From contig JANQFP010000208.1 of NCBI GenBank assembly GCA_028277795.1, positions 3,751 to 67,750 of the forward strand: a stretch of 64,000 bases of DNA, read 5' to 3'. Made by a program: the position numbers and the translations under genes. The notes under the pieces were generated by a model. It saw nothing but the letters and a program-made list of their open reading frames with translations. It made no database searches and was not told the origin of the DNA. Origin of the DNA: Rhodospirillales bacterium. GTDB taxonomy: Bacteria > Pseudomonadota > Alphaproteobacteria > Rhodospirillales > JANQFP01. Below are positions 13,986-49,182 of the stretch, piece by piece; the first letter of the stretch is position 1, and every line of letters begins with the position of its first letter.

Positions 13986-14058
13986 CCCATCGTGTTGGGG
14001 GGAGGGAGATGACTGACGACATCGGAAGCACGACGGACTGCGGCAGGGAGACCAGGCC

Positions 14059-21956: not shown

Positions 21957-22904
21957 ATGAGCAAGAAGGCGGACCCGACGAAGCCGGGCAAGGGGAAGGC
22001 GAAAAAGGCCGACAAGCCGGAACCGCAGCAGCCCGCGCAGCCGACCCTTCGCGTCGTCGAAGACGCGGCGCCGGAACCCCACTACGATCGACCGATCGAG
22101 GAGATCCGGGGCGAGACAAAGGCCAAGCTCAAGAACCAATTCTACGAAGCGGAACTGGCCCGCCTGCAGGAAGAACTCGTCAAGCTGCAGGAATGGATCA
22201 AGCACAAGGGCCTGAAGGTGGTGGTCATCTTCGAGGGCCGCGATGCCGCCGGCAAGGGCGGCGTCATCAAGCGCATCATGCTCAGGCTCAACCCGCGCAT
22301 CTGTCGCGTCGTCGCCCTCGGCACGCCGACCGAGCGGGAGAAGACCCAGTGGTACTTCCAGCGCTATGTACCCCATCTGCCGGCGGCCGGGGAAATGGTC
22401 CTGTTCGACCGCTCCTGGTACAACCGGGCCGGGGTCGAGCGGGTGATGGGCTTCTGCACGCAGGAGGAACACCGGGAGTTCCTGCGCTCCTGCCCGGAGT
22501 TCGAGCGCATGCTGGTCCGTTCGGGCATCACCCTCATCAAGTACTGGTTCTCGGTCAGCGACGAGGAGCAGGAACGCCGCTTCCAGGGGCGCATCACCAA
22601 TCCGGTCAAGCGCTGGAAACTCAGCCCCATGGACCTGGAATCCCGCAAGCAGTGGCTGGAGTACTCGAAGGCCAAGGACGAGATGTTCGCCCACACGGAC
22701 ATCAAACAGGCGCCGTGGTATGTGGTCGAGGCCGACCAGAAGAAGCGGGCGCGGCTCAACTGCATCCGCCACCTGTTAAGCATGATCCCTTACGAGGACC
22801 TGACGCCCGAACCCATCGAGCTGCCGCCGCGGCAGCCCGACAGGGGCTACGTCCGACCGCCCATGGACGATCAGACCTTCGTGCCCGACGAATACGAAGA
22901 CTAA
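21957..22904 (+). CDS. ppk2: Polyphosphate kinase 2 (PPK2)
   Basis: The sequence VVVIFEGRDAAGKGGVIKRI is the Walker A region. QWYFQRYVPHLPAAGEMVLFDRSWYNRAGVERVMGF is the canonical PPK2 core. Confidence 0.9.
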   Translation: MSKKADPTKPGKGKAKKADKPEPQQPAQPTLRVVEDAAPEPHYDRPIEEIRGETKAKLKNQFYEAELARLQEELVKLQEWIKHKGLKVVVIFEGRDAAGKGGVIKRIMLRLNPRICRVVALGTPTEREKTQWYFQRYVPHLPAAGEMVLFDRSWYNRAGVERVMGFCTQEEHREFLRSCPEFERMLVRSGITLIKYWFSVSDEEQERRFQGRITNPVKRWKLSPMDLESRKQWLEYSKAKDEMFAHTDIKQAPWYVVEADQKKRARLNCIRHLLSMIPYEDLTPEPIELPPRQPDRGYVRPPMDDQTFVPDEYED

Positions 22905-22916: not shown

Positions 22917-23531
22917 TCAGGCCGACTCGAGGTCACGCGGCGAGACGAACCCCTCGAGGCGGCAGCTGCCCGGAGCGAGGGCCGCCCAGTCCCCGGTCTC
23001 GCAGGTCAGCACGGCCAGGGCCCCGGTCGGGTACTTGTCGGTCATGCGTTGGTGGGCCGCCCCGTCGCCGCGGCCGGCCAGCGCCGTGGCCAGGATCTCG
23101 AGGCCGGGGTTGTGGCCAATCATCATCACCGACGGCACGGATGGGTCCAGGGTCTGCAGGCGGCGCAGGAGGTCGCCGGCGTCGGCCTCGTAGAGATCCC
23201 GTTCCACGTGGGTGGCGACGCCGCCACCCAATGCGCCTTCGATCAGCGCCAAGGTGTCGCGGGTCCGCCGCGCTGCCGAGCACAGGACCATGTGGGGCCG
23301 CAATCCATGGCGACGCAGGTGCTCGGCCATCAGCTTGCCGGCGCGGCGGCCGCGCTTGGCCAGCGGGCGGTCGAAGTCGTCCAGCGACAGGTCCTTCCAC
23401 GAGGACTTGGCATGACGCAGCAGATAGATGGTCTTCAGCGTCGGTGCGGCGGGCTTTTTGGCGGACCGCTTCGCGTCTTTCTTGCCTGCCTTCCCCTCGG
23501 TGCCGGCCTTGGGCCCGGGGTCGGCCATCAT
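22917..23531 (-). CDS. Histidine phosphatase superfamily protein (SixA-like)
   Basis: The RHA motif is in IYLLRHAKSSW and the second His is in MMIGHNPG. The ATG-ATG start at 23531 overlaps the stop of the upstream ppk2 (ATGA). The track ORF reaching 24110 is a run-on. Confidence 0.8.
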   Translation of the reverse strand: MMADPGPKAGTEGKAGKKDAKRSAKKPAAPTLKTIYLLRHAKSSWKDLSLDDFDRPLAKRGRRAGKLMAEHLRRHGLRPHMVLCSAARRTRDTLALIEGALGGGVATHVERDLYEADAGDLLRRLQTLDPSVPSVMMIGHNPGLEILATALAGRGDGAAHQRMTDKYPTGALAVLTCETGDWAALAPGSCRLEGFVSPRDLESA

Positions 23532-24487
23532 GAGGTCGGCGAGCCCGGCCCGGCGCGGCGGGGCAGGACGGAATCGGGCCCGCTGTCGCGGAGCTCGACG
23601 AAGTTGGATGCCGGGCCGACGATCTTCGGGTCGGGCGTCATCGCCACGGCAGGGTTCTTGTCCGGATAGGGAAGGGCCGTCAGCAGGTGCCGCATGCAAT
23701 TGAGGCGGGCCCGCTTCTTGTCGTCCGACTTGACGATGGTCCACGGGGCGTCGGTGGTGTCGGTGTGGAAGAGCATGGCCTGCTTGGCCGCCGTGTAGTC
23801 GTCCCACTTGTCGAGGGACTGCTTGTCGATGGGGCTGAGCTTCCACTGTTTCAGGGGGTCCGTGCGCCGGGACGCGAAACGCCGCGACTGCTCGGCGCGG
23901 CTTACCGAGAACCAGTACTTGAACAGGAGAGTGCCGCTGTTCACCAGCATGCGCTCGAACTGCGGCGCCTGGCGCAGGAACTCCAGGTACTCGGTGTCGG
24001 TGCAGAACCCCATGACGATCTCGACCCCGGCGCGGTTGTACCAGGAGCGGTCGAACAGGACGATCTCGCCCTTCGAGGGCAGGTGGGTCACGTAGCGCTG
24101 GAAGTACCACTGGCCGCGCTCGCGCTCGGTGGGCTTCTCCAGGGCCACAACCTGGGCGCCGCGGGGATTGAGGTGCTCCATGAACCGCTTGATGGTGCCT
24201 CCCTTGCCGGCGGCGTCGCGGCCCTCGAAGATGAGCAGCACCTTCTGCCCGGTGTCGCGCACCCAGCTCTGCACCTTCAGGAGCTCGGTCTGCAGCTCCA
24301 TCTTGGTGCCCTCGTACTCCCGGCGCCGCATCTTAATGCGGTAGGGGTAGTCGGGGTCGAGGATGCGCTTGCGCAGCGGGATGGCCGGGTCGTCCAGGGC
24401 GTCCGGGTGCGCCGGCGACGGATCGGCGGTTTCCGCCACGTCCGCGAGGTCGGCAGGGTCGCGTTGATCGGGCTCGGTTTCCGGCAT
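23528..24487 (-). CDS. ppk2: Polyphosphate kinase 2 (PPK2), second paralog
   Basis: VLLIFEGRDAAGKGGTIKRF and QWYFQRYVTHLPSKGEIVLFDRSWYNRAGVEIVMGF are both present. The ATG at 24487 is preferred over the TTG at 24505. Confidence 0.9.
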   Translation of the reverse strand: MPETEPDQRDPADLADVAETADPSPAHPDALDDPAIPLRKRILDPDYPYRIKMRRREYEGTKMELQTELLKVQSWVRDTGQKVLLIFEGRDAAGKGGTIKRFMEHLNPRGAQVVALEKPTERERGQWYFQRYVTHLPSKGEIVLFDRSWYNRAGVEIVMGFCTDTEYLEFLRQAPQFERMLVNSGTLLFKYWFSVSRAEQSRRFASRRTDPLKQWKLSPIDKQSLDKWDDYTAAKQAMLFHTDTTDAPWTIVKSDDKKRARLNCMRHLLTALPYPDKNPAVAMTPDPKIVGPASNFVELRDSGPDSVLPRRAGPGSPTS

Positions 24488-24667
24488 GGCACGATCGAAT
24501 GGCAAATGGGTGTCGGAGGTGATTTCGACCCTACCACAAGATCATGACAGGAACTATCACGGTCCCGGCCGCGGGCCCGTCGATGGCCTGGAACCCGCCG
24601 CCCGTGGTGTGGTAACGCAGGAGACGGCCCCGAGGTCGGGCCGGGCACGGGCAGGGAGCGGCGGGGC

Positions 24668-26260
24668 ATGGACGACTGGTGGCGCGGCGCCGTCCTCTAT
24701 CAGATCTATCCGCGCAGCTTCCTCGACACCAATGGCGACGGCATCGGGGATCTGCCGGGCATCGCGGAAAAGCTGGACTACGTGGCCGATCTCGGCGTCG
24801 ACGGGGTCTGGATCTCGCCCTTCTTCCCTTCGCCGATGAAGGACTTCGGCTACGACGTGGCCGATTTCCGGGGCGTCGACCCGATGTTCGGCAGCCTCGA
24901 CGATTTCGACCGGCTCCTCGACCGTGCCCACGGGCTCGGGCTCAAGGTGATCATTGATCAGGTCTACTCCCACACGTCGGACCGGCACCCCTGGTTTCAG
25001 GCCAGCCGGCAGGGCCGCGACAACCCGTTCGCCGACTGGTACGTGTGGGCCGACCCCAAGGTGGACGGCACGCCGCCCAACAACTGGCTGGCCATCTTCG
25101 GCGGCGTCGCTTGGGAGTGGGAGCCGCGAAGACGCCAGTACTACCTGCACAACTTCCTGCGCGAGCAGCCGGACCTCAACCTGCACAACCCGGCGGTCCA
25201 GGAGGCCATCCTGGACACGGCGCGGTTCTGGCTCGACCGCGGGGTCGACGGATTCCGCCTCGATGTCGCCAACTTCTTCCTGCACGATCCGCACTTGCGC
25301 GACAATCCGCCTTATGCTCACCCCAACCCCATCAAGCCCTATTGGCTGCAACGGCAGGTATTCAACCGCTCGCGGCCGGAGACCTTGGACTTCGTGGCCC
25401 GCCTGCGGGCGGTGCTGGACGCCTATCCGGGCACCATGACCGTGGCGGAGATCGCCAGCGACCGGCCGGTGGAGACCATGGTCGAGTACACGGACGGCCC
25501 GGACCGCTTCCACACCGCGTACAGCTTCGTTCTCCTCCGCCAATCCTTCGGCGCCGAGCACATCCGCCGGTCGGTGGAGGCCATGCGCGGCGAGACGTCC
25601 CACACCTGGCCGTCGTGGGCGTTCAGCAACCACGACGTGGAGCGGGTGGTCTCGCGCTGGGCGGCCGAGCCGTCGCCGGCGTTCGCCCGCCTGATGGTGG
25701 CCGTGCTGACCAGCCTTCGCGGCACCGCGTTCCTCTACCAGGGCGAGGAGCTGGGCCTGCCCCAGGCGGCGGTCCCCTACGAGCGTCTGCGCGATCCGGA
25801 GGGCCTCACGTTCTGGCCCGAGCACAAGGGCCGGGACGGGGCCCGCACGCCGCTGCCGTGGCGGGCCGACGGCGCCCACGCCGGTTTCTCCGATGCCGAG
25901 CCTTGGCTGCCGATGGACCCGGCCCACCGGCCGCTGGCGGTCGACCGTCAGGACGCCGATCCCGGGTCGGTGCTCAACTTCACCCGCCGGTTCCTGCGCT
26001 GGCGCAAAGGCCACCCGGCCCTCATCCGCGGGGCCATCCACTTCCTCGATGGCGCGGAGCCGCTGCTCGCCTTCGAACGGCAGGGACCCGACGGCCGCAT
26101 CCTGTGCGCCTTCAACCTGGGTCCCGAACCGCTGGCGGCGGCGCTGCCGCTGTCCGGCGTCGCGACCCCTTTGGCCGACGCCGGCCTGCCCGGGCGCCTG
26201 CACGGCAATCGGCTCGACCTGCCCGGATACGGCGGCGTCTTCGCCGCGTTGGACGGTTGA
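24668..26260 (+). CDS. GH13 alpha-glucosidase / oligo-1,6-glucosidase-like
   Basis: The N-terminus WWRGAVLYQIYPRSFLDTNGDGIGDLPGI and the segments GVDGVWISPFF, DQVYSHTS, GVDGFRLDVA and NHD make up the conserved GH13 regions. Confidence 0.9.
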   Translation: MDDWWRGAVLYQIYPRSFLDTNGDGIGDLPGIAEKLDYVADLGVDGVWISPFFPSPMKDFGYDVADFRGVDPMFGSLDDFDRLLDRAHGLGLKVIIDQVYSHTSDRHPWFQASRQGRDNPFADWYVWADPKVDGTPPNNWLAIFGGVAWEWEPRRRQYYLHNFLREQPDLNLHNPAVQEAILDTARFWLDRGVDGFRLDVANFFLHDPHLRDNPPYAHPNPIKPYWLQRQVFNRSRPETLDFVARLRAVLDAYPGTMTVAEIASDRPVETMVEYTDGPDRFHTAYSFVLLRQSFGAEHIRRSVEAMRGETSHTWPSWAFSNHDVERVVSRWAAEPSPAFARLMVAVLTSLRGTAFLYQGEELGLPQAAVPYERLRDPEGLTFWPEHKGRDGARTPLPWRADGAHAGFSDAEPWLPMDPAHRPLAVDRQDADPGSVLNFTRRFLRWRKGHPALIRGAIHFLDGAEPLLAFERQGPDGRILCAFNLGPEPLAAALPLSGVATPLADAGLPGRLHGNRLDLPGYGGVFAALDG

Positions 26261-26273: not shown

Positions 26274-26999
26274 GTGACAGCCCCGTCCCCTTGGTCGCCG
26301 CGGCCGCCCCGCCGCCCCCTGTGGCCGTGGCTGGTCGGGTTCGCGGTGGCGGTGGCGGCGCTGGTGGCCCTGTTGGCGAGCCTGTTTCCCGAGGCCCTGG
26401 CAGAAGACGTCTCGCGGGCCGAGTTGGTGCGATCGCTGCTCATCCTGGCCCTGATCGCCAGCGGGGTCATCGTCCATTGGCGGACCCGGCCGGGGCAGGC
26501 GCTGCGGCATCTGGGTCTGTGGACGGCCATCGGCGGCGTCGTTTTCCTCGGCTACAGCTTCCGCCACGAGGCGGGGTTCCTGAAGGACCGGATGCTGGGC
26601 GAGCTGGTTCCCCACCACGGCGCCGTCACCGGAGACGCCGTCACCCTGGTCAAGCGCGCCGACGGCCATTTCGTGGTCGCGGCGGAGGTGGACGGGGTTT
26701 CGGTGCGGTTCATGGTCGATACCGGGGCCAGCGACGTGGTGCTCAGCCCGGCCGACGCGCGCCGCCTGGGGTTCGATGTCGACGGTCTGGCGTTCACGCG
26801 CCGCTACCGGACGGCCAACGGCACCGTGTGGGGCGCGCCGGTCGTGCTCCGCCGCGTGGCCATCGGCCCCATCGCCCTGTCGGACGTCCGTGCCTCGGTC
26901 AACGGTGCGCCCATGGAACTGTCGCTGCTCGGCATGAGTTTCCTGGACCGTTTGTCGGGTTACGAAGTGGCCGGTGATCGTCTTACCCTTAGGCCCTAA
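26274..26999 (+). CDS. Membrane-anchored retropepsin-like (clan AA, TIGR02281-type) aspartic protease
   Basis: The GTG at 26274 follows GGGAGGA. TM segments are followed by GHFVVAAEVDGVSVRFMVDTGASDVVLS, which contains the DTGA active site, and by LLGMSFL. Confidence 0.8.
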   Translation: MTAPSPWSPRPPRRPLWPWLVGFAVAVAALVALLASLFPEALAEDVSRAELVRSLLILALIASGVIVHWRTRPGQALRHLGLWTAIGGVVFLGYSFRHEAGFLKDRMLGELVPHHGAVTGDAVTLVKRADGHFVVAAEVDGVSVRFMVDTGASDVVLSPADARRLGFDVDGLAFTRRYRTANGTVWGAPVVLRRVAIGPIALSDVRASVNGAPMELSLLGMSFLDRLSGYEVAGDRLTLRP

Positions 27000-27174
27000 C
27001 CCTTTGTTGCTGAGGCTTTGCGGGGTCCTCGGGCGTCCAGGCGGGATCGCTCTGGCGGGGAATTCGATTAAAGCGTGCGGCTATTTCTGCTAGACTCTTA
27101 GGTTGCGCAGAGGTTGAGTGTGAGGTGGGTACGTAGCGGCAATTTGGATCAACGTTGGTGTGGGGAGCAGCGAT

Positions 27175-27390
27175 ATGTCTGATAGTGTCTACAAAGTCAT
27201 TACGCTGGTCGGCAGCAGCCCGACCTCGTGGGAGGACGCGACGAAGAACGCCGTCGCCGAAGCCGCCAAGCACCTGCGGGACCTGCGTATTGCCGAGGTC
27301 GATAACCTCGACGTGCATCTCGAGAACAACGAAATCGCCATGTTCCGGGCCAAGGTGAAGGTCTCGTTCAAGTACGAGGGTACCGGCTGA
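27175..27390 (+). CDS. Dodecin (flavin-binding, DUF1458)
   Basis: MSDSVYKVITLVGSSPTSWEDATKNAVAEAAKHLRDLRIAEV matches the dodecin signature. The protein is about 71 aa. Confidence 0.8.
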   Translation: MSDSVYKVITLVGSSPTSWEDATKNAVAEAAKHLRDLRIAEVDNLDVHLENNEIAMFRAKVKVSFKYEGTG

Positions 27391-27517
27391 GGCTGCGCCG
27401 CGCGTTCGCCGCGCGCCATCCCGTGAATGGGCGAGGGGACCGCGAGGTCCCCTCGTGCCATGCGGGCGGAGACCTGGGGCCGCACCGGGAACCGAGACGG
27501 CGGATTCGGGACGATCG

Positions 27518-27847
27518 ATGAGCGAAAGAGCCGTTTTCAGGTTGTTCATCGCCGGCGATACGCCGCAATCGCGGAACGCAGTGGCCACCCTGCGACGCAT
27601 CGGCGAAACCGAGCTTGCCGGCAACTGCCAACTGGAGATCATCGATGTCCTCGAGGACCCCTGGGCGGCCGAGCGGGAGAAGGTGCTGGCGACCCCCGCC
27701 CTGATCAAGCTCGCGCCGCCTCCGGCGCGGCGACTGGTTGGCGACATGGCCGATATCCCGGGCCTGCTGTGGACCCTGGACATCGGGATTCCGGCGGCGG
27801 AAGGCGCCGACAGGGGGGCATCACGGCGGTCGCGGGGGACAACGTGA
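27518..27847 (+). CDS. kaiB: KaiB-like protein (thioredoxin-fold circadian clock protein homolog), orphan
   Basis: FRLFIAGDTPQSRNAVATLRRI..LEIIDVLEDPWAAEREKVLATPALIKLAPPPARRLVGDM aligns motif for motif with cyanobacterial KaiB (LYVAGNTPNS...IDVL..P..AE..KILATPTL.K..P.P.RRIIGDL). The ATG at 27518 is preferred. Confidence 0.85.
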   Translation: MSERAVFRLFIAGDTPQSRNAVATLRRIGETELAGNCQLEIIDVLEDPWAAEREKVLATPALIKLAPPPARRLVGDMADIPGLLWTLDIGIPAAEGADRGASRRSRGTT

Positions 27848-27916: not shown

Positions 27917-29671
27917 ATGATCGTTGAATTGCGGACGGTGTTGGCCGCGGCCCTTCTCGCCGGGCTGCTCGGAGTGGCCGCGGCGGATGCCGCGGGGCGC
28001 TTCCCGCCCGAGGTGGAGGCCAGTCTGGAGCGCGCCGACGCCCTCATCAAGATCGAGCAACTGGAAGAGGCTCTGGCCGTTCTGAAGTCCATAGAGACCG
28101 AGGACTCCGCGGTCGACGCCCGCATCGAGACCCTGCTCGGCAAGATTTATCTGCGCATCGCCAAGCCGGCGAAGGCCCTCGACCTGTTCGAGCATGCCAG
28201 CTTCAACACCCTCGACGATGCCGAGCCCCACCTGGGCATGGCCCAGGCCGCAATGGCGATGGGCAACCTGAAGCGGGCGCGGCGCCAGGCGAACATGGCC
28301 CTGCGGACCGATCCCGACTTGACCGAGGCGCACCTGGTGATCGCCCTCATCGACGACCGCAGCGGCAAAGTCGAGGAGGCGCACGGCCGTTTCCTCGAGT
28401 TGCGGCGCCACCAGCCGGACAACGAGGAAGTGGTGGTGGCCTACGGCCGGTTCCTGGCCGAGCGCGAGGGACTGGGCGAGGCGTCGCGGCTGCTCACCGG
28501 CTATATCGACCGGCATCCCTTCGCCCCCGAGGCCAGTGACCTGCTGGGTCAGCTCTACTGGCGGGCCGGCGGTCGCGTCGAGGACGCGCTGAGGTACCGG
28601 GCCGCCGCCGCCAAGGCGTTCGAACTCCAAGGGAACCACTACCGGGCGGAGGGCCTGCGCGATTGGCTCGCCGCCAACGATCCCAGCGGCCGCTTCAGCG
28701 GCCAGCCCGCGCCGGAGCCGAAAAAGACGACCCCGCCGCCGGCGAAACCCGAAGCCAAGCCGCCGGCCGCGCCGACGCCGCCGCAGCCGGTGACCCAGCC
28801 GCCGCGGCCGGCGCCGGCCCCGCCGCCGAAGACGCAGACGGCGAAGGTGCAACCGAAGGACCCGGTTCCGCCGCCAGGGGTGCAGAGCCCCAGGGCACGG
28901 CCGGACAGGCCGGCCCGGCCCGCTCCGCAGGTCACTCCGAAACCGGCCCCGGCGCCGCAGCCGGTGGCCGCGGTCATGCCGCGCCACACGGTCCTCAAGC
29001 GGCCGGAGCCATTGCCTCTCAGGCCCGGTTCCAAGTTCAAGAGCGGCAGCGGCTTCGTGGTCGACGGCGGGCGCCGGGTGGTCACCAACCGGCACGTCAT
29101 CGACGGCATGAGCCGGGTGGTGGTGCGCAGCGGCACCGGCGAGGTCCGCCACGCCAAGGTCGCCGCCATCGCGCCCAACGACGACCTGGCCGTCCTTGAT
29201 CTGGCCAAGGCGTTCCCTGCCTCCTATGCGGTGCCGTTTTCGGCCATGTCCGATCCGTCGCCCGGGCGGGCGGCGGTGGTGATGGGGTATCCGATGATGG
29301 GCATCCTGGGATCGCGCCAACCGTCGCTCACCGAGGGCATCGTCAGCAAGTCGAGCGGCATGGGCGACGACCCCAACACCTTCTTCATCACGTCCAAGAT
29401 GAACAAGGGCAACAGCGGCGGCCCCATCTTCGACCGGCGCGGCAACCTGATCGGCGTCGCCGTGGCCAAGCTCGACGCCCTCGACGTCTACGAAAAGAAG
29501 GGCTACATGCCCGAGGACGTCAACGTGGGGATCAAGGCCAACCGCGTCCTGCGTTTCCTCAAGCGGCCGGCCAAGCCGAGAGAGGGCCAGGCCGTGGCCG
29601 ACGCCGCGCTGGAGGACCTCTATCAGGGCATGTTGGCACGGGTGGTGCTGGTGGTCGGCGAAGTGAAATGA
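27917..29671 (+). CDS. Exported TPR-repeat / Pro-rich linker / trypsin-like (S1, PF13365-type) serine protease
   Basis: The ATG at 27917 lies 9 nt after AGGAGG. The signal peptide is MIVELRTVLAAALLAGLLGVAAADA. TPR repeats and a ~110-aa Pro-rich linker follow. The catalytic triad context is TNRHVIDG, NDDLAVLDL and KGNSGGPIF. Confidence 0.85.
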   Translation: MIVELRTVLAAALLAGLLGVAAADAAGRFPPEVEASLERADALIKIEQLEEALAVLKSIETEDSAVDARIETLLGKIYLRIAKPAKALDLFEHASFNTLDDAEPHLGMAQAAMAMGNLKRARRQANMALRTDPDLTEAHLVIALIDDRSGKVEEAHGRFLELRRHQPDNEEVVVAYGRFLAEREGLGEASRLLTGYIDRHPFAPEASDLLGQLYWRAGGRVEDALRYRAAAAKAFELQGNHYRAEGLRDWLAANDPSGRFSGQPAPEPKKTTPPPAKPEAKPPAAPTPPQPVTQPPRPAPAPPPKTQTAKVQPKDPVPPPGVQSPRARPDRPARPAPQVTPKPAPAPQPVAAVMPRHTVLKRPEPLPLRPGSKFKSGSGFVVDGGRRVVTNRHVIDGMSRVVVRSGTGEVRHAKVAAIAPNDDLAVLDLAKAFPASYAVPFSAMSDPSPGRAAVVMGYPMMGILGSRQPSLTEGIVSKSSGMGDDPNTFFITSKMNKGNSGGPIFDRRGNLIGVAVAKLDALDVYEKKGYMPEDVNVGIKANRVLRFLKRPAKPREGQAVADAALEDLYQGMLARVVLVVGEVK

Positions 29672-30492
29672 TTCGTCCGTCTCGGCTGATGCCGCCGCTT
29701 CTCGCGGTGGGCCTTCTGTTGTCGGCGCCGGCCGTGGCGGCCTGGTCGGCCGGCGTCGGCGAATGGATCTTCGGCCCCGACATGTCGGAGCGGGAAGCCT
29801 GCCTGCGGGCCGAAAGCAAGGCCAAGGAATCGGCCCTGCGCAAGGTCACCGGCGAGGCCATGTCGTCGGAGGACCTGATGGTCTGCCGGGAGCAGGGGGA
29901 CGACGCCCAGTGCCGCATGAACCGTATCACCTGGAGCATGATCGACGGCAACATCCGGGACGTGCGGAACGTCCGCAAGGAACGCCGTCCCGGGCCCCAG
30001 GGGGCGCTGTTGTGCCGGGTCAGCCTGGAGGTCAACGTGGACGTCGGTCAGGGGCGTCCCGACCCCAACTTCGATATGGCGGTGCGGCTCAACCGCCGCA
30101 CCCTGCGCCACGGGGACCCCATGGAGATCGAGGTGATCCCGACCCAGCCCATGTACGTCAGCGTGTTCCAATGGCTGCCCTACGAGAAGGCCGAGCGCCA
30201 GATCATGCGCATCTTTCCCAATCCCTACGACCAGAGGAACCTGTTCCAGGGACGGGCGACCGTTCCCACCGCGGCCGGCCGGCAGGCCTACGACCTCTAC
30301 GTGGGCTTTCCCCAGGGCTTGGCCGACTCCAGGACCATGGTCGACGAGTACCTGATGGTGATCGGCACCAAGGATCAGGTCCGTTTCCGCGAGACCTATT
30401 CGCTGCACGAGTTCACCGCCCGCCTTCTGGAGATTCCCCGCCAGGAATGGCGGCGGGTGCGCAAGGCCTACAACGTGGTGAGGTCGGAATGA
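29668..30492 (+). CDS. Exported DUF4384-domain protein
   Basis: The signal peptide is MIRPSRLMPPLLAVGLLLSAPAVAA. The C-terminal part is DUF4384-like (LRHGDPMEIEVIPTQPMYVSVFQWLPY...IFPN). The start overlaps the upstream stop (ATGA). Confidence 0.6.
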   Translation: MIRPSRLMPPLLAVGLLLSAPAVAAWSAGVGEWIFGPDMSEREACLRAESKAKESALRKVTGEAMSSEDLMVCREQGDDAQCRMNRITWSMIDGNIRDVRNVRKERRPGPQGALLCRVSLEVNVDVGQGRPDPNFDMAVRLNRRTLRHGDPMEIEVIPTQPMYVSVFQWLPYEKAERQIMRIFPNPYDQRNLFQGRATVPTAAGRQAYDLYVGFPQGLADSRTMVDEYLMVIGTKDQVRFRETYSLHEFTARLLEIPRQEWRRVRKAYNVVRSE

Positions 30493-32162
30493 GGACGCGA
30501 ACCGGCGCCGCCATCGGCATCGCCGCCCTGTGCGGACTGATCGCCGCCTGCGAGAAACCCACCTACCACGATCAGGGCCTCGAGGAGCAGGGCCTGGAGA
30601 ACCCCTTCTCCAAGGTGGTCTTCCAGGTCCACGACGCATACAAGGCCAACCCGCCGGAGTGCGTCGCCGTGCTGCCCTTCGAGATCGGGCCCGGCGAGGA
30701 GGAGGCAGATCCGGAGGCGGCACCCGAGGCGGAAGGCGAGGGATCCGCCGAGCCCGCGGCCGAGCCGCCCACCGAGGTCGCCACCGACGAGCAGGGAAAT
30801 CCGTTGACCGGCGACGTGACAGCCGAGGAGGCGGAGGCGGTGCGCCGCGCCTTCTATGCCCACCTGTCGCCCCAGGGCAAGCGGGACGTGGAGATCCCCC
30901 GCATCGATTTCGTCCTCAACCGGATTCCCGATGAGCACCGGCAAGACCTGGTGACCGTGGCCTCCAATCTGAACTGCGATTCGGTGATCGTGGGGCGGGT
31001 CACCGAGTACGGCGCCCAGTTCGTCGGCGTCTATTCGCGGATCGGCGTCGGCGCGGACCTGAAGATGGTGCGGGCCGAGGACGGCGCCGTGCTGTGGGAG
31101 GGCCGGCATCTGGCGCAGAGTCATGGGGGCTCGGTGCCGCTGTCGCCCATAGGGCTGGCCATGGGCATCCTCTCGGCGGCGTTCAACCTGGACGAGGAAC
31201 AGGAGCTGCGGGTGGTCGACGACCTGACCCGGCGCCTGGTGAAGACCATCCCCGACGACCGGCTGTCGGTCCTCGATACCCCGTTCACCACGGTCAAGGT
31301 GATGCCCCGCCGCGGCGACGAGGGTGCCAAGGTGGCGGGAGCCGGCGCCGGCGCCGGCGGCGACGCCGCCCAGCCGGCTCCGGCCGACGTTGCCGGCGAC
31401 GTCGGGGTCGGCCTGACCACCGTGGCCGACACGGTGGTGCTCAGCTCCGAGCACCTGGGGCCGGTGGAGGACGCGGCGGCCGCCCGGGCCTTCATCGAGT
31501 CGCTGGCCGCCGAGCCCAGGGAGCAAAGGGTGTCGGCCCTGGTCGAGGCGGCCGAGTCCTACCGGTTCGACGACGAGGGCACCGAGCTGGTGCACCGCAC
31601 GCTCATCGAATGGGCGCCGGACGACCCGTCCCATTCCATGCGCTTCGCCGAGCACCTGGTCGGCAAGGGCGATTACGACGGCGCGCTTCAGGTGGCCGAG
31701 CAGTCCCTGGCCGCCCATCGGGACGACCACGCCATGCATTACCTCAAGGCGCGGGTGCAGATCAAACTGGGCCAGCTCGACGCCGCCGACCAGTCCATCG
31801 TCCAGGCCGTCGCCCTGTCCGACAACGAGCCCAGTTACCTGAACGGCCTGGGCTACGTGAACTCGCTGAGGGGCAATGCCGAGCGGGCGCTGGCCGCCTA
31901 TCGCATGGCCCTTGATCGCGACCCCGCCAACGGCTACGCCTACTACAACATGGGCGTGACTCTTTATAATCTCGAAGACATTCCGGGCGCCGCGGAAGCG
32001 TTCTATGGTGCCGGTCTGGCCTATCTGAAGACCGGGGACTACGGTCAGGCGGAAAAGGCCCTGGAGGATCTCAAAGACCTCGCCGCCCAGGGGATTGATG
32101 CGGGCGAGGAAATCAAGACTCTGGAAGACGCCCTGGAGTCGCTGACAAGAGGGGTGAGCTGA
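30489..32162 (+). CDS. Lipoprotein with a DUF799 (GNA1162-like) domain carrying an acidic insertion, fused to C-terminal TPR repeats
   Basis: The lipobox is LIAAC. The DUF799-like core contains AVLPFEI...DSVIVGRVTEYG...ADLKMVRAEDGAVLWEG. An acidic E/A/P insertion lies at about 30700-30830. The C-terminal TPRs include ALAAYRMALDRDPANGYAYYNMGVTLYNLEDIPGAAEAFYGAG. The start has an ATGA overlap with the upstream gene. Confidence 0.65.
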   Translation: MRTRTGAAIGIAALCGLIAACEKPTYHDQGLEEQGLENPFSKVVFQVHDAYKANPPECVAVLPFEIGPGEEEADPEAAPEAEGEGSAEPAAEPPTEVATDEQGNPLTGDVTAEEAEAVRRAFYAHLSPQGKRDVEIPRIDFVLNRIPDEHRQDLVTVASNLNCDSVIVGRVTEYGAQFVGVYSRIGVGADLKMVRAEDGAVLWEGRHLAQSHGGSVPLSPIGLAMGILSAAFNLDEEQELRVVDDLTRRLVKTIPDDRLSVLDTPFTTVKVMPRRGDEGAKVAGAGAGAGGDAAQPAPADVAGDVGVGLTTVADTVVLSSEHLGPVEDAAAARAFIESLAAEPREQRVSALVEAAESYRFDDEGTELVHRTLIEWAPDDPSHSMRFAEHLVGKGDYDGALQVAEQSLAAHRDDHAMHYLKARVQIKLGQLDAADQSIVQAVALSDNEPSYLNGLGYVNSLRGNAERALAAYRMALDRDPANGYAYYNMGVTLYNLEDIPGAAEAFYGAGLAYLKTGDYGQAEKALEDLKDLAAQGIDAGEEIKTLEDALESLTRGVS

Positions 32163-32163: not shown

Positions 32164-32766
32164 ATGAAGACCTTCGATCAGATTTCCGGACCGGCCGCGC
32201 TGGTCGGAACCATCGTGCTGGCCGCCGGGCTCATGGCCGGCTGCGCGACCCCGCCACCGGGATCGCCCGAGCAGAAGGCGGAGGCGGTGGAGGAGAGCGT
32301 GGTCGACATGCCGGAGTGGTTCGTGTCCCTGCCGACGGACGAAAACCACGTCTATTCGGCCGGCACGTCCACCTCGTCCAATCTGCAGCTCGCCAAGGAC
32401 AAGGCGGTCATGAGCGCCAAGCGGACCCTGGCGGATTCGCTGAACGGCAGGCTCAGCAGCAAGATGAAGAGCTTCCTCTCGGAAAGCACGGTCGGCGAGG
32501 ACACCGAGGCCATCGAGGAGGTCGAGCGGGTCACCACCAACCTGATCACCGAGACCAACGTGTCGGGCTACAGCGTCAAGCAGTCCAAGTTCCTGTCTCA
32601 GGGCAAGATGTTCCGCGCTTACGTGCTGCTCGAGTACCCGGTCGGCAAGGCCAACCGCATCCTGGTCGACCAGGTGAAGAAAAACCGGGTGCTCAGCGCG
32701 CGTTTGCGCAGCTCCAAGGCGTTCAAGGACCTGGAGGACGAGATCAAGGCGGCCCGCCAGCGTTGA
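32164..32766 (+). CDS. LPP20-family lipoprotein
   Basis: The lipobox is LMAGC. The core is LPP20-like (PEWFVSLPTDENHVYSAGTSTSSNLQLAKDKAVMSAKRTLADSL...FRAYVLLEYP). Confidence 0.7.
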   Translation: MKTFDQISGPAALVGTIVLAAGLMAGCATPPPGSPEQKAEAVEESVVDMPEWFVSLPTDENHVYSAGTSTSSNLQLAKDKAVMSAKRTLADSLNGRLSSKMKSFLSESTVGEDTEAIEEVERVTTNLITETNVSGYSVKQSKFLSQGKMFRAYVLLEYPVGKANRILVDQVKKNRVLSARLRSSKAFKDLEDEIKAARQR

Positions 32767-32790: not shown

Positions 32791-33273
32791 ATGGTGAAAC
32801 GTCGTTCGTATCGGTGGGCGATCGCAGTGCCGGTGCTGCTGTGCCTGGCGGCCGGAGTGGCGCCGGCGGACGAACCCAAGTGGCTGATCACGCCGGAGGA
32901 GGTGGCCCAGGTCACGCGCGGCGGAAGCTACGACTTCAAGACCCTGGTGTCGGCCGAAGAGGGGCCGGGGCCCGAGATCGTGCTCAAGAACCCCAGGGCC
33001 CTGTCGCGGGTGGTCTCACCCGTCGACATCCACGTCAAGTTCGAGCCCGGCGACAGCGGCGAGCCACCCGACATGGGCAGTCTCGAGGTCACCCTGGTGG
33101 GCTTCATCGACATCGACATCACCGACCGCGTGCGCGAGTACGTCAAGGGGAACGATCTGGGCATCCAGGCGGCGCCCCTGCCCAGCGGCCGCCACCGCAT
33201 CCGGATGGCCATCAAGGATGTGAAGGGCAACCCCAACGAGCGCGACGTGGTGGTCCGGGTCGTCGACGAATGA
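32791..33273 (+). CDS. Exported hypothetical protein (beta-rich, Ig-like?)
   Basis: The signal peptide is MVKRRSYRWAIAVPVLLCLAAGVAPA. I recognise no domain. It is coupled to the next gene by an ATGA overlap. Confidence 0.5.
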   Translation: MVKRRSYRWAIAVPVLLCLAAGVAPADEPKWLITPEEVAQVTRGGSYDFKTLVSAEEGPGPEIVLKNPRALSRVVSPVDIHVKFEPGDSGEPPDMGSLEVTLVGFIDIDITDRVREYVKGNDLGIQAAPLPSGRHRIRMAIKDVKGNPNERDVVVRVVDE

Positions 33274-34574
33274 GCATCCGCCGTCCATATCGTCTACCCA
33301 AGTGGGCAGTGGCTGCACCGCTGCTGGTAGCGGCGATGGCCGTGGCCGGCTGCGAGAACCCGGACCAGGCGGCCCGCCAGGTCGACCAGTTGGCCGAGGG
33401 CATCAAGCAGATCGGGCGCGCGCTGGCGGTGAAGAATCCGCAAGTGGAGCCGACCAAGAAAGAGGTGGAGGGGCGCGAGTTCCGGGTCGACGTGTCGGAG
33501 AAGTGGGAGGGCGAATACACCATCCGCGTGGTCGACACCGCCTCGGTCATCTTCCGCCCGGACTCCGAGGCGGTCCAGGAGCCCCGCCGCAAGGCCATGG
33601 AGAAAGCCATCGCCGAAACCTGCCCCTATGGCGTCAAGAAGGTGCGCAAGGAGCGGACCCAGGCCGCCAACACCATGATCGCCACCGTCCAGTGCCTGCG
33701 ATCCGACGAGCCCCAGATCGCCCGCCGGCCCGGTCTCGGCGACACCGCGGCCCGCGGCCGGAAGTTGTCGGAGAAGGCTTTGGCGCTGGACTACCCGAAA
33801 GGCGAGAAGCGTGCCGACGACATCGCGGTGATCATCGGCAACGCCGACTACACCACCGAAGGCAAGGACATCCCCGACGTGGTGCCGGCCTATGCCGATG
33901 CCGAGAGCTTCAAGATGTACGCCCAGAGCACCCTCGGCATCAGCAAGGACAACATCATCTTCATGAGGGACGCCACGCAGGCCGACCTGATCTCCACCTT
34001 CGGCAGCGAGGACGACCACCGGGGCCAGCTCTTCAACTGGGTGGAGCCGGACGTCTCCAACGTGTGGGTGTACTACTCGGGCCACGGGGCGCCCGGCGAC
34101 AAGACCGGCGACAGCTACCTGGTCCCGGCCGACGCCCAGGCGACCATGATCCAACTCAACGGCTATCCGCTCAGGCGGCTCTACCGCAACCTGAGCAAGC
34201 TCCCCGCGAAGTCGGTGACGGTGGTCTTGGAGGCGTGTTTCTCGGGCGCCAGCGCCGGCGGCTCGGTGATCAGCAACGCCTCGCCCATCTACCTCAAGGC
34301 CAAGGAGACCGGGGTCCCGGCCAACGTCACCGTGGTCGCCGCCGGCACCGCCAACCAGATCGCCTCGTGGGAAGAGGACAAGTCCAACGGCCTGTTCACC
34401 AAATACTTCCTCAAGGGCATGGCCGGCGAGGCCGACGAAAGCCCCTACGGCGACGGCAACGGGACGGTGGCGTGGTCCGAGCTGGAGGCCTTCCTCAAGC
34501 GCACGCTGACCCGATCGGCGCGGCGTATCTACGGTCGCGATCAGACGGCGCAAATCGTCGTCGCCGGCCATTGA
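33270..34574 (+). CDS. Lipoprotein with a caspase-like (peptidase C14) domain
   Basis: The lipobox is AVAGC. The caspase His-Cys dyad context is VWVYYSGHGAP and VVLEACFSGAS. The N-terminal ~170 aa match no domain I recognise. The track ORF beginning at 32814 is a run-on. Confidence 0.8.
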   Translation: MSIRRPYRLPKWAVAAPLLVAAMAVAGCENPDQAARQVDQLAEGIKQIGRALAVKNPQVEPTKKEVEGREFRVDVSEKWEGEYTIRVVDTASVIFRPDSEAVQEPRRKAMEKAIAETCPYGVKKVRKERTQAANTMIATVQCLRSDEPQIARRPGLGDTAARGRKLSEKALALDYPKGEKRADDIAVIIGNADYTTEGKDIPDVVPAYADAESFKMYAQSTLGISKDNIIFMRDATQADLISTFGSEDDHRGQLFNWVEPDVSNVWVYYSGHGAPGDKTGDSYLVPADAQATMIQLNGYPLRRLYRNLSKLPAKSVTVVLEACFSGASAGGSVISNASPIYLKAKETGVPANVTVVAAGTANQIASWEEDKSNGLFTKYFLKGMAGEADESPYGDGNGTVAWSELEAFLKRTLTRSARRIYGRDQTAQIVVAGH

Positions 34575-34605
34575 CCGCGTCCGCGGCCGGGGCGGCCCGG
34601 CACCT

Positions 34606-36108
34606 ATGACCCAGCGGAGGAGCAGGCCGGGGCGGCCCGTGGCGGCGGGATTGTGGCCGGTCGCGGCGACCCTGCTGTCGCTGGTGCTGTCGGTCCATGC
34701 CGGCCAGGCCGCCGGGGGACCCATGCCGCCGCGGCCCTACTACGTCACGCCTTGGGCCTTCGTGCCGGTGGCATCGGCGTCGCCCAATCTATCGCGTGCC
34801 CTGTTCGCCTACGAGCGCCGCATCGACCGGCGCGCAAAGCCGACCGAGGTGCGGCGCTACAAACGCCTGTTCAAGGCGGTCTTCGAGCGGGTGCGCATGG
34901 ACTACGTGATCGCCGCCGACCCGGCCAAGCTGGTCGCCGCCGCCATCGGCGGCATGGACCAGGCGGTGGCCGGCGGCGGCGACAGATCGGCGCGGGCGGT
35001 GATGGAGGCGGGCCTGGCGGCCATGCTGACCTCCCTGGACCCCCATTCCGAGTACCTCAGCCCCGAAGACCTGCGGGATATCCGCGCCCAGAGCCGCGGC
35101 CGCTTCGCCGGCCTCGGCGTGGAGATCACCCTGGACGGCGGGCTGGTGCGGGTGATCTCGCCCATAGACGGCACCCCGGCCCACCGGGCCGGCATCCGCG
35201 CCGGCGACCGCATCACCCACCTGGACGGACAGCCGGTGCGCGGACTGACCCTGGCCCAGGCCGTCAAACGCATGCGCGGACGCAAGGGCACGGCCATCCG
35301 TCTCACCGTGCAACGGCCCGGGCAGCCGCCCTTCGACGTCACCGTGGTCCGCGACATCGTCAACGTCCGCGCCGTCCGCTCCCGCCTCGAAGGCCAGGTC
35401 GGCTACCTGCGGGTGACCGTGTTCAATCAGGCGACCGCGCCCAAGGTGATGCAGGCCGTCGAAGGTTTTCGCCGCCAGGCCGGCCCCCGCCTGCGGGGCC
35501 TGGTGCTCGACCTGCGCAGCAACCCGGGGGGCCTTCTCGATCAGGCCGTCGCCGTGGCCGACACCTTCCTGCCCGGCGGCGTCATCGTCAGCGCTCGTGC
35601 CCGGCGCGCCGCCGACAACCAGCAGTACCGGTCGGTGCGTGGCGACCTTACCGGCGGCCTGCCGCTGGTGGTACTGGTCAACGGCGGCTCGGCGTCGTCG
35701 GCCGAGATCGTCGCCGCGGCCCTGCAGGACCACCGGCGGGCGGCCATCCTGGGCAGCCGCTCCTTCGGCAAGGGCTCGGTGCAGACCGTGTTCCCGGTGG
35801 GCGGTCATGGCGCCGTGCGCCTGACCACCGCCATCTACTACACGCCCGCGGACCGGGCCCTGCAGAAGACGGGCATCGTGCCCGACGTGATCATCGCCAC
35901 CGAGGCCGAGGCCGACCGCAAGCGCGAGTCCGACCTGCCGGGCGCCCTGCCGGCCGCCGGCAACGCCCACGCGGCCTCGCGCGTCACCATTTCCGAGGAC
36001 CGCTGTCCGGCGGTGGGCGCCGATGCGGACCGGGTGCTCGGCTGCGCCCTGGCGTACCTGCGTGCGCCCAGCCCCGCCGCGTTCATCGACGCGGTCAACC
36101 GTCGGTAA
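34606..36108 (+). CDS. C-terminal processing peptidase (S41, PDZ-containing)
   Basis: A signal peptide is present. The PDZ domain contains GLGVEITLDGGLVRVISPIDGTPAHRAGIRAGDRI. The S41 core contains LVLDLRSNPGGLL, NGGSASSAEIVAAAL and GKGSVQT. Confidence 0.9.
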   Translation: MTQRRSRPGRPVAAGLWPVAATLLSLVLSVHAGQAAGGPMPPRPYYVTPWAFVPVASASPNLSRALFAYERRIDRRAKPTEVRRYKRLFKAVFERVRMDYVIAADPAKLVAAAIGGMDQAVAGGGDRSARAVMEAGLAAMLTSLDPHSEYLSPEDLRDIRAQSRGRFAGLGVEITLDGGLVRVISPIDGTPAHRAGIRAGDRITHLDGQPVRGLTLAQAVKRMRGRKGTAIRLTVQRPGQPPFDVTVVRDIVNVRAVRSRLEGQVGYLRVTVFNQATAPKVMQAVEGFRRQAGPRLRGLVLDLRSNPGGLLDQAVAVADTFLPGGVIVSARARRAADNQQYRSVRGDLTGGLPLVVLVNGGSASSAEIVAAALQDHRRAAILGSRSFGKGSVQTVFPVGGHGAVRLTTAIYYTPADRALQKTGIVPDVIIATEAEADRKRESDLPGALPAAGNAHAASRVTISEDRCPAVGADADRVLGCALAYLRAPSPAAFIDAVNRR

Positions 36109-44969: not shown

Positions 44970-47900
44970 TCACTTCTCGGCCGTCATCAGACTCGGCGCC
45001 CGGCGCGGGAAGGTGGGCATCTGCAAATGCTTGACCCGCTCGCCCTCCTTGGGCGTCGTGGTCAGGCCGAGCCAGATGAACACCTTGGTCTCGCTGACCT
45101 CCTCGTTGCGCTGCACGGCGTCGGGGTCGACCCACTTGACGGTGGAGGTGGGGACCGCGAAGCGCAAGGTGTGCGGCGTGGTATCGACGCCGCGCGCGAA
45201 GTCGCCGGCCTGGCCGCGATGACGCTCCAGCAGCCGCAGCATGGACCAGGCGTTGTCGTATTCCCAGACCACCGTGCGTTCGTTCTCGATGCGCATGCCG
45301 GCGTCGGGTCCGGTCACCGGCGTGGCCGGCGAGTCCTTGGCCCAGCGCAGGGACACCCGCACCGGATCGCCGAACCGCCACGTTCCGTCCAGCTTGACGT
45401 CGGAAATCAGGAACCGCTTGCTGCCCAGGTCCAGGGCCCATTCGATGATCTGGTTGCTGCCCACGTCGGCGGCCCGGTTCACGCGGAAGTCCACCTTGGT
45501 GTTGTAGAGCGGCTCGATCCCGGCCAGATCGGCCGCCAGCACCGGCGCCAGGAAATCGCGCACCTTGGCCATGTCCCTGAGGAAGCCGATGGCGGCGCGA
45601 CCGGGGGCGCCGAGGACCGGGTTGTCCTCGAGCAGCTTCTCCACTGCGTCGGCCTCGCGGTCGAAGGTCAGGTAGAAGGTCCGGATGTCCTGGGGATCGG
45701 CGTCGCGGATGGTCTCGCCGGGGCCCACGTCGGCGAAGGGATAGCGGTCGGCCAGGGTGTCGTTGAACAGGTCGGCGATGCGGGCGTAGCGCACCTCGAC
45801 GCGCTCGCCGGCCAGGTCGCGGCAGCGGTCCAGCAGGGCGGCGTGCAGGGCGTTGCGCCGGGCGAGGAAGAAGTCGCCGCTGGGTTTGCGGTCGCCGGCG
45901 GACAGGGTCTCGTGGCAGTTGGCCGCGGTGGTCTCGAACATGTCGAAGCGGATGAACTTCTCCAGCTTGACCACCGAGCTGCCGGTCTGGCGGTTGGCGT
46001 ACTTGTTGAGCTCCTCGAAGATGCGCCGCCATTTGCCGACCACGAAGGCCACCGACCGGTCGCGGCGGAAATGGCTGCCGGCGAGGAAGGCGATCAGGGG
46101 TTCGGCATAGTCCCGGAGCAGCACGTCGACCCGGTCCCGCTGGAGGTCCAGGTAATGCAGGACCTCGGTGTCGTCGTGGGCCTGGAAGGCGAAGAACACC
46201 GGCGGCTCGCGGCCGTCCCACAGCTCCAGGCTCTCCGCCGGCAGGTAGAGATGCTCGCCGTTGAGCAGGCGGTCCACCCGCTCCAGCAGGTCGGCGGCAT
46301 GGGCCAGCGAGACCGCGTGCAGGGCCTGGTAGGACTCGGGCATCTGCAACTGCTCGAGCACGGTCAGCAACTGGGTCAGCACCCCCGAGGCCTTGCGGAA
46401 GTCGCGGATCTCGCGGGCCAGATCCTCTTCGGCCTGGACGTGCCAGGTGCTGAGCGCCACCCGCTGGCTCTGGGAGCCGGCGATCTCGGTGGCCATGTTG
46501 GTCTCCAGCCGGGCCAGGGCCAGGTCGCGCACCCGCGCCTGCAGGGGGAAAGGGAAGACGTCCAGGTGCTCGGCCATGAAGGCGTCGAACTCCTCGAAGA
46601 AGACGACCGCCGCATCCAGGCGCCGCGGCGACCACACCAGGCGCTTGACCGGACTGTAGGTGGGGTCGATGGGCTGGGGCAGCTTGACGGTCATGAAGTC
46701 CTGGGCGAACAGGCGCGACAGGGCCAGGCGCAGGCCGACCAGCGGCTCGGCCGCGCGCATGCGCACCCGGCCCTCCTCGCGGGCCAGCAGCGGGCCGGTC
46801 AGGCCGGCCTTGTACGCCCCCAGCTTCTGCTTGAAACGCTCGAACTCGCTCTGGCCCTGGGCCACCAGCTCGGTGCTCAGCTCGGGGCCGAGGAAGGCGG
46901 AGTCGGCGACCCGGGCCATGGCCTTGCCGAAGGCGACTCCCGGGTTGAACACGTCGCCGGCGATCCATGCCACGTCGGGGCTGCCGAGCAGCTTTTCCGT
47001 GCGCTCGATGGCGTCCAGGGACTCGCGCAGGGCGACCGCCTCCAGCTCCAGCGAGCGGGCCGGCTCCTCCAGCGCCCGCAGCTTCTGGGTGAGGCCGTAG
47101 AGCTGGCGGGAGATGGCGCCCGAATAGAACAGGCGCCCATAGAGCCGCCAAGTGGTGTCGCGCACCCGTGCCGTGGCCCTGCCGCCGAAGCGCTCGATCT
47201 CGAACCGGCGCTGGGCCACCGAGTGCAGGGCGCGGCGGAAGAACTCCGGATACTCGAAAATGCCGGGCGGCAGCTCGATGTCGAACAGGAAGCGCGACAG
47301 CTCGGCCACGTCCCTAAGGTCCTGGGTGTCGCCGAGGCCGTTGTAGCGGGCCACGTTGGCCTCCAGGTTCTCGATCTCGTCGAGCAGCCGGACCAGGGCC
47401 TGGAACTCGGCCATGTCGTCCAGGCCCTCCAGGGCCGCGGCCTCGTCCGCGCCGGCCTCCACCGGGGCCGCCAGCAGGGTGCGGGTGCGCACCACCAGCT
47501 CGTTGTACATGGCGCGCATGATGATGTTCTCGAAACCGCCGGCGATGAAGCGGCCGATGTGGTCGTCCAGATCGCTGAACCAGGACGACGGGATGAACAC
47601 CGACGTCAGGCTCTTGGTGCGCACGTGGGCCATGACGTCGAGCAGGCGGCGGGCGCTGCTCTCCTGGAGGAAGGTCAGCTTGGCCGCGCCGTCGCCGTCG
47701 CCGGCCACCTCGGCGGCGCGGCGCTCCTGGTCGCGGAGGCGGGCCACGTCGTCGCCGATGCCTTCGAGCACCGGCTGCAGGGAGCGGATGTCGGCGGTCA
47801 GCCCGTCGTAGGCGAACCACAGGCCGAGGCCGAAGATGAGCACCGAGGCGGCCAGCGCCGACTGGGCGGCGAGCACGGCGCGGTTGCGCGACAGCAGCGT

Positions 47901-49157: not shown

Positions 49158-49182
49158 GGGTGCACCAGGCTCTCCCGCGCCG

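Follow-up and report, generated by a model that had tools for sequence, protein, structure and literature searches.

A predicted caspase-family lipoprotein encoded within a conserved cluster of exported proteases and lipoproteins in a Rhodospirillales bacterium

The stretch of DNA considered here (hereafter, the window) comprises 64,000 nt from a Rhodospirillales bacterium (GenBank assembly GCA_028277795.1, contig JANQFP010000208.1, positions 3,751 to 67,750 of the forward strand), and coordinates are counted from its first nucleotide unless another locus is named. At 33270–34574 (+) there is an open reading frame (ORF) of 434 aa, from an ATG at 33270 to a stop codon ending at 34574, which an original prediction, made without database searches, had described as a caspase-fold protease with a lipoprotein signal. 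The encoded protein consists of a signal peptide with a lipobox, an orphan N-terminal domain of about 130 aa, and a C-terminal caspase (C14) domain of about 275 aa, and its assignment to the caspase family is supported by Pfam, homolog conservation, the predicted fold, an alignment to MALT1 and a closely related ortholog. Its gene is the sixth of seven on the same strand; judging from the sequence, it belongs to a conserved cluster that encodes exported proteases and lipoproteins, with which it is translationally coupled.

The junctions between the seven genes are −4, −4, +1, +24, −4 and +31 nt, and all seven products carry export signals. Gene 1 (27917–29671, +) codes for an exported protein of 584 aa that combines TPR families with a trypsin-like serine protease domain (Pfam Trypsin_2, E = 1e-24); its signal peptide is MIVELRTVLAAALLAGLLGVAAADA, and the His, Asp and Ser motifs TNRHV, DLAVL and GNSGGP are visible in the sequence. 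Gene 2 (29668–30492, +), which overlaps its neighbors by 4 nt on both sides, specifies an exported DUF4384 protein of 274 aa (34.1 bits against a Pfam cut-off of 27). The product of gene 3 (30489–32162, +) is a lipoprotein of 557 aa (lipobox LIAAC) with a GNA1162/DUF799-like N-terminal part, where the match is weak (23.7 bits, below the cut-off of 25.9), and C-terminal repeats matched by Pfam TPR families; NCBIfam returned only weak TPR-type matches (NlpI, PilW), that to NlpI scoring 24.7 bits against a cut-off of 250. Gene 4 (32164–32766, +) specifies an LPP20-like lipoprotein of 200 aa (LMAGC), for which the Pfam LPP20 match is weak (19.5 bits), while its orthologs at two other loci (L007 and L008) match LPP20 above or near the cut-off. 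It weakly matches LPP20 of H. pylori (PDB 5ok8); compared with the PDB by sequence, the GNA1162-like and LPP20-like proteins both found marginal matches only. Gene 5 (32791–33273, +), here called P160, overlaps the start of the caspase gene with its stop codon. It codes for a secreted protein of 160 aa in which the motif WLITPEEA is conserved and to which no family of Pfam or NCBIfam could be assigned. The P160 model (pLDDT 81) gave generic matches to beta-sandwiches of the Ig, FnIII and PKD type, with no inhibitor-like fold among them. Downstream of the caspase gene, gene 7 (34606–36108, +) encodes a C-terminal processing protease of family S41, 500 aa long, which is exported and has a PDZ domain (Peptidase_S41, E = 1.4e-48; NCBIfam 'prc', 286 bits). 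An Rfam scan was uninformative.

The ATG of the caspase gene overlaps the stop codon of P160 (ATGA), and a protein called independently in a public collection is the identical 434 aa product. Ahead of residue 110 the only further in-frame methionine is Met23, itself part of the signal peptide. On a Tara Oceans scaffold (L089), a P160 copy of 87% identity is followed by a caspase ortholog with the same ATGA overlap. This ortholog begins AAVTVAGCETPDQ, is 77% identical over residues 1–317, and keeps the signal peptide, the lipobox and the N-terminal domain; the signal region is only 48% identical between the two proteins, but its features are retained. Since the ortholog preserves the lipobox, the N-terminal domain and the gene overlap, the annotated start is sound. 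The ratio of nonsynonymous to synonymous substitution (dN/dS) between the pair stays below 1 throughout, with values of 0.37 (signal peptide), 0.40 (N-terminal domain) and 0.17 (caspase domain). The caspase gene has a GC content of 0.92 at third codon positions (GC3), and its GC by codon position is distributed as in the window's real genes (GC of the whole window, 68.6%). An antisense ORF at 33294–34724 was rejected, as it fails the codon-position GC test that all real window genes pass.

Read directly, the N-terminus of the caspase protein, MSIRRPYRLPKWAVAAPLLVAAMAVAGC, shows a basic n-region followed by a hydrophobic h-region that leads into the lipobox V-A-G-C. The pattern [LVI][ASTVI][GAS]C within the first ~40 residues is matched by MSIRRPYRLPKWAVAAPLLVAAMA-VAGC28, so that a type II signal peptide is assigned to 33270–33353 (+), with the codon of Cys28 at 33351–33353; it is also present in the L089 ortholog, and the lipoprotein signal that had been predicted is upheld as bona fide. 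The residue at +2 after the lipobox cysteine is Glu, in the L089 ortholog too, and does not decide between inner and outer membrane. A twin-arginine translocation (Tat) signal, considered for the RR at residues 4–5, was rejected because of poor motif context and the lack of a counterpart in homologs.

Over 1000 homologs were matched when 5.8 billion proteins were searched; the counts for closest homologs given here refer to the best 120. These share only the C-terminal ~275 residues (query 160–434) with the window protein, at 55–70% identity, and come mostly from Rhodospirillales metagenome-assembled genomes. From such relatives, a marine alphaproteobacterium of Rhodospirillales-like kind is suggested as the origin of the window. 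A lipobox is present in 62 and another signal peptide or transmembrane segment in 34 (96/120 in total), while the remaining 24 mostly look like fragments. Nearly all cluster-linked caspases at other loci also start with a signal peptide, and in 69 of 70 aligned members the catalytic cysteine is the only one of the caspase domain, which fits an oxidizing compartment. An envelope-tethered caspase had been called atypical, and this does not stand: on the evidence of these sequences, export is the rule in this large, uncharacterised orthocaspase subfamily, and the window protein is a typical member. Periplasmic caspases as such are not discussed in the literature that could be searched. A 2012 survey had already reported that many prokaryotic metacaspases carry an N-terminal helix, probably a signal peptide, and that Sel1/TPR fusions are common (PMC3501461).

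Between the signal peptide and the catalytic domain lies the orphan domain with its linker (33354–33749, +; residues 29–160), which contains two cysteines, Cys118 and Cys142. That this region matches nothing recognizable was upheld by an exhaustive HMMER search with residues 29–165 against 1.84 billion cluster representatives, which returned only the self-match, and these residues have no counterpart among the top caspase homologs. The L089 ortholog is the sole other carrier found; there the domain is 72% identical and both cysteines are kept, which, together with the dN/dS of 0.40, argues for a real protein domain under selection, although one that evolves faster than the caspase domain. The structural model of the domain is of low confidence, with a predicted order of helix, four strands, helix and two strands. 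In close homologs the equivalent N-terminal modules are unrelated, and include RcsF-like, DUF2846, ankyrin, MORN, SH3_3 and Sel1 domains, a DegP-like trypsin with two PDZ domains, and S41 with PDZ. Several of these (the RcsF-like lipoprotein domains, DUF2846, DegP-like trypsin with two PDZ domains, and S41-PDZ) point to the cell envelope.

The catalytic domain (33750–34571, +; residues 161–434) is matched by Pfam Peptidase_C14 (PF00656) over residues 185–389 (E = 3.6e-12; 46.9 bits against a cut-off of 21.4). The motif YYSGHG supplies His272 (codon 34083–34085) and LEACFSG supplies Cys323 (codon 34236–34238). In an alignment of 70 family members, His272 and Glu321 are found in 70/70, and Cys323, Asp210 and Glu368 in 69/70 each, the one exception at the catalytic position being a Ser-for-Cys variant. 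Searches of the PDB with the single sequence and with the 70-sequence profile found only a short GHG match. A profile built from ten diverse family members, however, aligned to MALT1 (E = 1.1e-5; ~16% identity), with GHG over GHG (H415), E-x-C over D-x-C (D462, C464) and D210 on D365, so that E321 falls on D462; E368 was matched to MALT1 E500 by eye only. In an AlphaFold model, most of the caspase domain (residues 170–434), apart from a loop at 325–342, exceeds a pLDDT of 90, and the best Foldseek matches of the model in the PDB were MALT1 (E = 8e-10), metacaspases, Geobacter GSU0716 and caspases (E = 1e-9 to 1e-7), so the modeled domain is predicted to have the caspase/hemoglobinase fold. The intact His/Cys dyad of the original prediction is thus maintained by profile match, conservation and fold, and the proper alignment in which non-canonical residues might have come to light placed both motifs on those of MALT1.

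Of the three residues that make up the S1 pocket for Arg in MALT1, two coincide with acidic residues of the window protein; the pocket and catalytic roles of the aligned MALT1 residues are established. Because D210 and E321 align with the pocket residues and are conserved in the family, we infer that the protein is probably an active enzyme with a basic (Arg/Lys) P1 preference. More distant cluster-linked caspases have D-x-C where the window protein has E-x-C, and an acidic pocket is reported to be conserved in orthocaspases (PMC6426788). The loop after Cys323 (residues 324–350) is strongly conserved, with K/R at 343 in 65/70 and at 345 in 64/70 (K343 and K345 in the window protein), and is predicted to be disordered; its position corresponds to that of the linker between caspase subunits, which makes it a candidate for autoprocessing. 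Where a metacaspase would have its p10 domain and its type of Ca2+ site, the C-terminal third of the protein is modeled as part of the domain and carries an EF-hand-like loop. This loop (residues ~386–404; window ~34425–34481), which in profile comparison matches calmodulin-type loops, is kept across the family; distant members show the canonical D-x-D-x-N-G-x-V-x-x-x-E, and the subfamily of the window protein has a 4-residue insert (SPYG). The caspase domain is always C-terminal, and ends 2–6 residues before the end of the protein.

Searching with P160 (78 family members) revealed a conserved gene context, with several members on contigs that also have caspase hits. Five core genes (TPR-trypsin, DUF4384, GNA1162-like-TPR, LPP20-like and P160) occur in the same order at seven other loci (L006, L007, L010, L011, L013, L016 and the P0140 locus), and the core is also present at L022, where the DUF4384 gene is inverted and lies upstream. 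The core is followed by zero (L007, Terasakiella sp. SH-1) to four caspase genes, and among the eight alphaproteobacterial-type clusters with enough downstream sequence, a caspase gene comes after P160 in seven. The LPP20-like gene is immediately upstream of P160 in most loci, and a distant form of the cluster, in Nitrospira and others, keeps LPP20-P160-trypsin. P160 loci that span 8 kb or more number 38; a trypsin-like gene is found in 28 of them and at least one caspase gene in 12, with 30 caspase genes in 729 kb. A 133 aa gene upstream of the caspase array at L004 was considered as a P160 homolog and rejected, as it is not homologous.

The largest array is at L006 (GCA_964490815.1, contig CAZBEC010000005.1, 1–17170), where a single core cluster lies amid seven caspase-domain genes that all differ in their N-terminal region. 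It ends with two fusions, Trypsin-PDZ-caspase (DegP-like, Trypsin-2xPDZ) and PDZ-S41-caspase, and is followed by a FecR-like gene on the opposite strand. The S41 protein of the window is 48% identical over residues 47–494 to the S41 part of the latter fusion, which provides a Rosetta-stone link between genes 6 and 7. Trypsin-caspase-DUF4384 fusions in Alphaproteobacteria were noted by a 2019 survey (PMC6426788). No description of the cluster itself was found in the searchable literature, and what is new here is a conserved operon of exported proteases and lipoproteins with modular caspase arrays attached. A reverse architecture (signal peptide, caspase, FGE-sulfatase domain) occurs after P160 in some clusters (L012, 888–2750; the P0140 locus). 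Regulatory genes adjoining the core also vary, and comprise an extracytoplasmic function (ECF) sigma/anti-sigma pair (P0140 locus), a two-component system (Terasakiella, L007, 4652 upstream) and a CHASE2-sigma54 activator (Nitrospira, L008); the window cluster has none of these beside it. Such regulators suggest control by envelope signals.

Among known systems, the orthocaspases (e.g., MaOC1 of Microcystis aeruginosa) share with the window protein the Pfam Peptidase_C14 domain, the His-Cys dyad and a bacterial origin, as well as an acidic residue two before the Cys and another after strand 1, which predict basic P1 specificity. Characterised orthocaspases are cytoplasmic and have their catalytic domain at the N-terminus, whereas the window protein is predicted to be a lipoprotein, has its catalytic domain at the extreme C-terminus, carries an EF-hand-like loop, and is encoded in a conserved cluster for exported proteins. 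Alphaproteobacteria are the richest source of orthocaspases (PMC6426788, PMC3501461). The paracaspase MALT1 is the best match both by fold and by PDB profile, and its GHG, D/E-x-C and Asp after strand 1 align, but it is eukaryotic and cytosolic, and has death and Ig domains. In the window protein no death or Ig domains were detected by Pfam, and the chain ends a few residues past the last caspase strand, so the term paracaspase does not apply. MALT1 is Arg-specific and is activated by dimerization.

Fragipain, a C11 lipoprotein of Bacteroides fragilis, and the C25 proteins gingipains and PorU combine the clan CD fold and a His/Cys dyad with Arg/Lys specificity and a location in the envelope or at the surface, and fragipain carries a lipoprotein signal. 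These proteins nonetheless belong to other MEROPS families and other phyla, are linked to type IX secretion or toxin activation, and are unrelated to the window cluster. The NlpI-Prc system of E. coli and LbcA-CtpA of Pseudomonas aeruginosa are a precedent for lipoprotein-scaffolded, substrate-selective proteolysis in the periplasm. As in the window, a TPR lipoprotein and a PDZ-containing S41 protease, both exported, are encoded together. Both systems lack caspase, trypsin, LPP20, DUF4384 and P160 components; the likeness is one of functional analogy with weak TPR-level similarity. Defense caspases and CHAT proteases (EACC1-associated, type III-E Csx29, gasdermin-activating) resemble the window protein in caspase fold, dyad and modular partner fusions, but are cytoplasmic and work with NTPases, CRISPR effectors or pore-formers, while the components of the window cluster are all predicted to be exported.

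We consider it probable that the caspase is a lipid-tethered periplasmic endopeptidase, specific for Arg/Lys, that joins the trypsin-like and S41 proteases in a hub scaffolded by lipoproteins. Processing by Lgt and LspA would leave an N-terminal lipid that tethers the protein to a membrane face bordering the periplasm, whether of the inner or the outer membrane, and the tethered enzyme would cut after Arg or Lys as an endopeptidase. It may cooperate with the other two proteases of the cluster on a scaffold of TPR and LPP20 lipoproteins, by analogy with NlpI-Prc and LbcA-CtpA, with the fast-evolving N-terminal domain supplying substrate or docking specificity particular to each paralog. Autoprocessing could take place at the K-A-K that is conserved in the flexible loop behind Cys323, the EF-hand-like loop could act as a Ca2+ switch, and the substrates may be the cell's own envelope proteins or incoming foreign proteins. 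Several points weigh against this reading. The scaffold is proposed by analogy and from weak Pfam matches, those to GNA1162 and LPP20 being below cut-off in the window, and the predicted specificity depends on an alignment to a protein of 16% identity in which the third pocket residue was matched by eye. Co-transcription was inferred from gene spacing, a scan for promoters and terminators being uninformative. The first 22 codons have a GC3 of 0.59, compared to 0.92 for the gene, and are the sole mildly discordant datum on the start. The two closest caspase homologs (P0002 and P0005) lie in unrelated neighborhoods, and the core cluster of Terasakiella (L007) has no adjacent caspase, so that the caspase may be an accessory or independent component.

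These last two observations would be expected of a stand-alone exported protease, engaged in peptide scavenging or general turnover of envelope proteins, whose position in the cluster reflects co-regulation or chance, as would the presence of caspase genes near only 12 of the 38 long P160 loci. Such an arrangement is unlikely given that the L089 ortholog keeps the ATGA overlap with P160, that a caspase gene follows P160 in 7/8 of the clusters where it could be seen, and that caspase domains are fused to the cluster's own types of S41 and trypsin protease. The attachment of the domain to other complete proteases can also be taken as a sign that it does not act by hydrolysis, but as a transpeptidase or sorting enzyme, like GPI8 and PorU of clan CD, or as a docking module for N-terminal cargo; its invariable position 2–6 residues from the C-terminus fits this, as does an identity of 55–70% with many invariant surface-type positions, beyond the need of an active site alone. 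We regard this as distinctly improbable, since the dyad and the acidic pocket residues are almost invariant, as catalysis would lead one to expect, neither acceptor-substrate candidates nor sorting signals were identified, and pseudo-enzymes are rare (the one Ser-for-Cys variant among 70). Hardly any weight is given to a mis-called start, with downstream initiation yielding a cytoplasmic protein like the characterised bacterial caspase homologs. There is no clear Shine-Dalgarno sequence upstream of the ATG and the GC3 of the first 22 codons is low, but low GC3 is common in signal sequences and is attributed here to that usual codon bias, not counted as positive evidence. The only nearby alternative, Met23, is within the signal peptide; in the L089 ortholog this peptide persists with its lipobox despite the divergence of the signal region, as does the ATGA overlap; 96/120 homologs have the same architecture, and the independent gene call agrees. 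The downstream start that the original prediction had named as its potential undoing was therefore not borne out.

A different reading of the modular arrays is that of an envelope surveillance or death system, in which the core platform is constant and the caspase paralogs are sensor-effectors with differing N-terminal domains. A foreign protein in the periplasm (phage tail, bacteriocin or type VI secretion effector) would bring caspase domains together and so activate them, as in initiator caspases or MALT1, and the invader or targets of the cell itself would then be cleaved. The joining of a constant, highly conserved caspase domain to unrelated N-terminal modules accords with this, as do the tandem arrays of paralogs (up to seven, at L006), the orphan and faster-evolving N-terminal domain, and the loop after the catalytic Cys, which is conserved yet predicted to be disordered, as in zymogens; an IcmF/TssM-like type VI secretion gene elsewhere in the window also indicates an organism engaged in envelope conflict. 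PADLOC, however, finds no system, only weak generic matches to caspase and trypsin, and the model for EACC1-type defense caspases (NF047832) scores 57.4 bits against a cut-off of 140, with no EACC1 neighbor. The cluster lacks NTPase, nuclease or other typical partners of conflict systems, the loci are chromosomal and housekeeping-like, though transposases are near some, and the dN/dS of 0.40 for the N-terminal domain reflects purifying and not diversifying selection, all of which make this explanation doubtful. We hold it similarly speculative that the cluster represents a hitherto undescribed periplasmic, caspase-based proteolytic system, where a platform of lipoprotein, TPR and Ig-like components with the trypsin-like protease docks an expandable set of exported caspases, their swappable N-terminal domains serving as sensors or baits and their activation occurring by induced proximity in the envelope. 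If true, this would amount to an extracytoplasmic immune or death cascade, or to a programmable device for substrate selection.

Bacterial caspase homologs have been discussed almost entirely as cytoplasmic proteases of cell death and defense, but the present subfamily, a large one of Alphaproteobacteria, is built for the periplasm, on the evidence of its signal peptides and lipoboxes, its single cysteine and its envelope-type fusion partners. The locus offers a concrete entry point to caspases outside the cytoplasm, with one operon, three proteases that are predicted to be active, and a cultured relative in Terasakiella sp. SH-1. It is relevant, too, to the proposal that eukaryotic caspases have an alphaproteobacterial ancestry.

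Several other genes in the window merit mention. About 70 nt upstream of the TPR-trypsin gene is a stand-alone KaiB homolog (27515–27847, +; PF07689, E = 2e-23), and KaiC was not recognised among the window ORFs scanned. A dodecin of 76 aa (27160–27390, +; PF07311, E = 4e-26) lies between kaiB and the gene for a membrane-anchored, retropepsin-like aspartyl protease (~26400–26999, +; PF13975/PF13650, DTGAS), which is ~900 nt upstream of the cluster and adds a fourth protease type nearby. Further upstream, two divergent paralogs of polyphosphate kinase 2 (PPK2) are found side by side (21957–22904, + and 23528–24505, −), adjoined by a gene of the alpha-amylase family (24668–26260). The IcmF-related domain mentioned above forms the N-terminal part of a TssM-like protein of 1416 aa (44970–49220, −), and suggests a type VI secretion locus. 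The remaining genes of interest code for an RND transporter of the AcrB family (3690–7988, +), unusually long at 1432 aa, with the Pfam domain at 46–1097 and a C-terminal extension of ~330 aa, a bacterial dynamin-family GTPase (14017–15597, +), and a dCache-HAMP-adenylate/guanylate cyclase (53484–55721, +).

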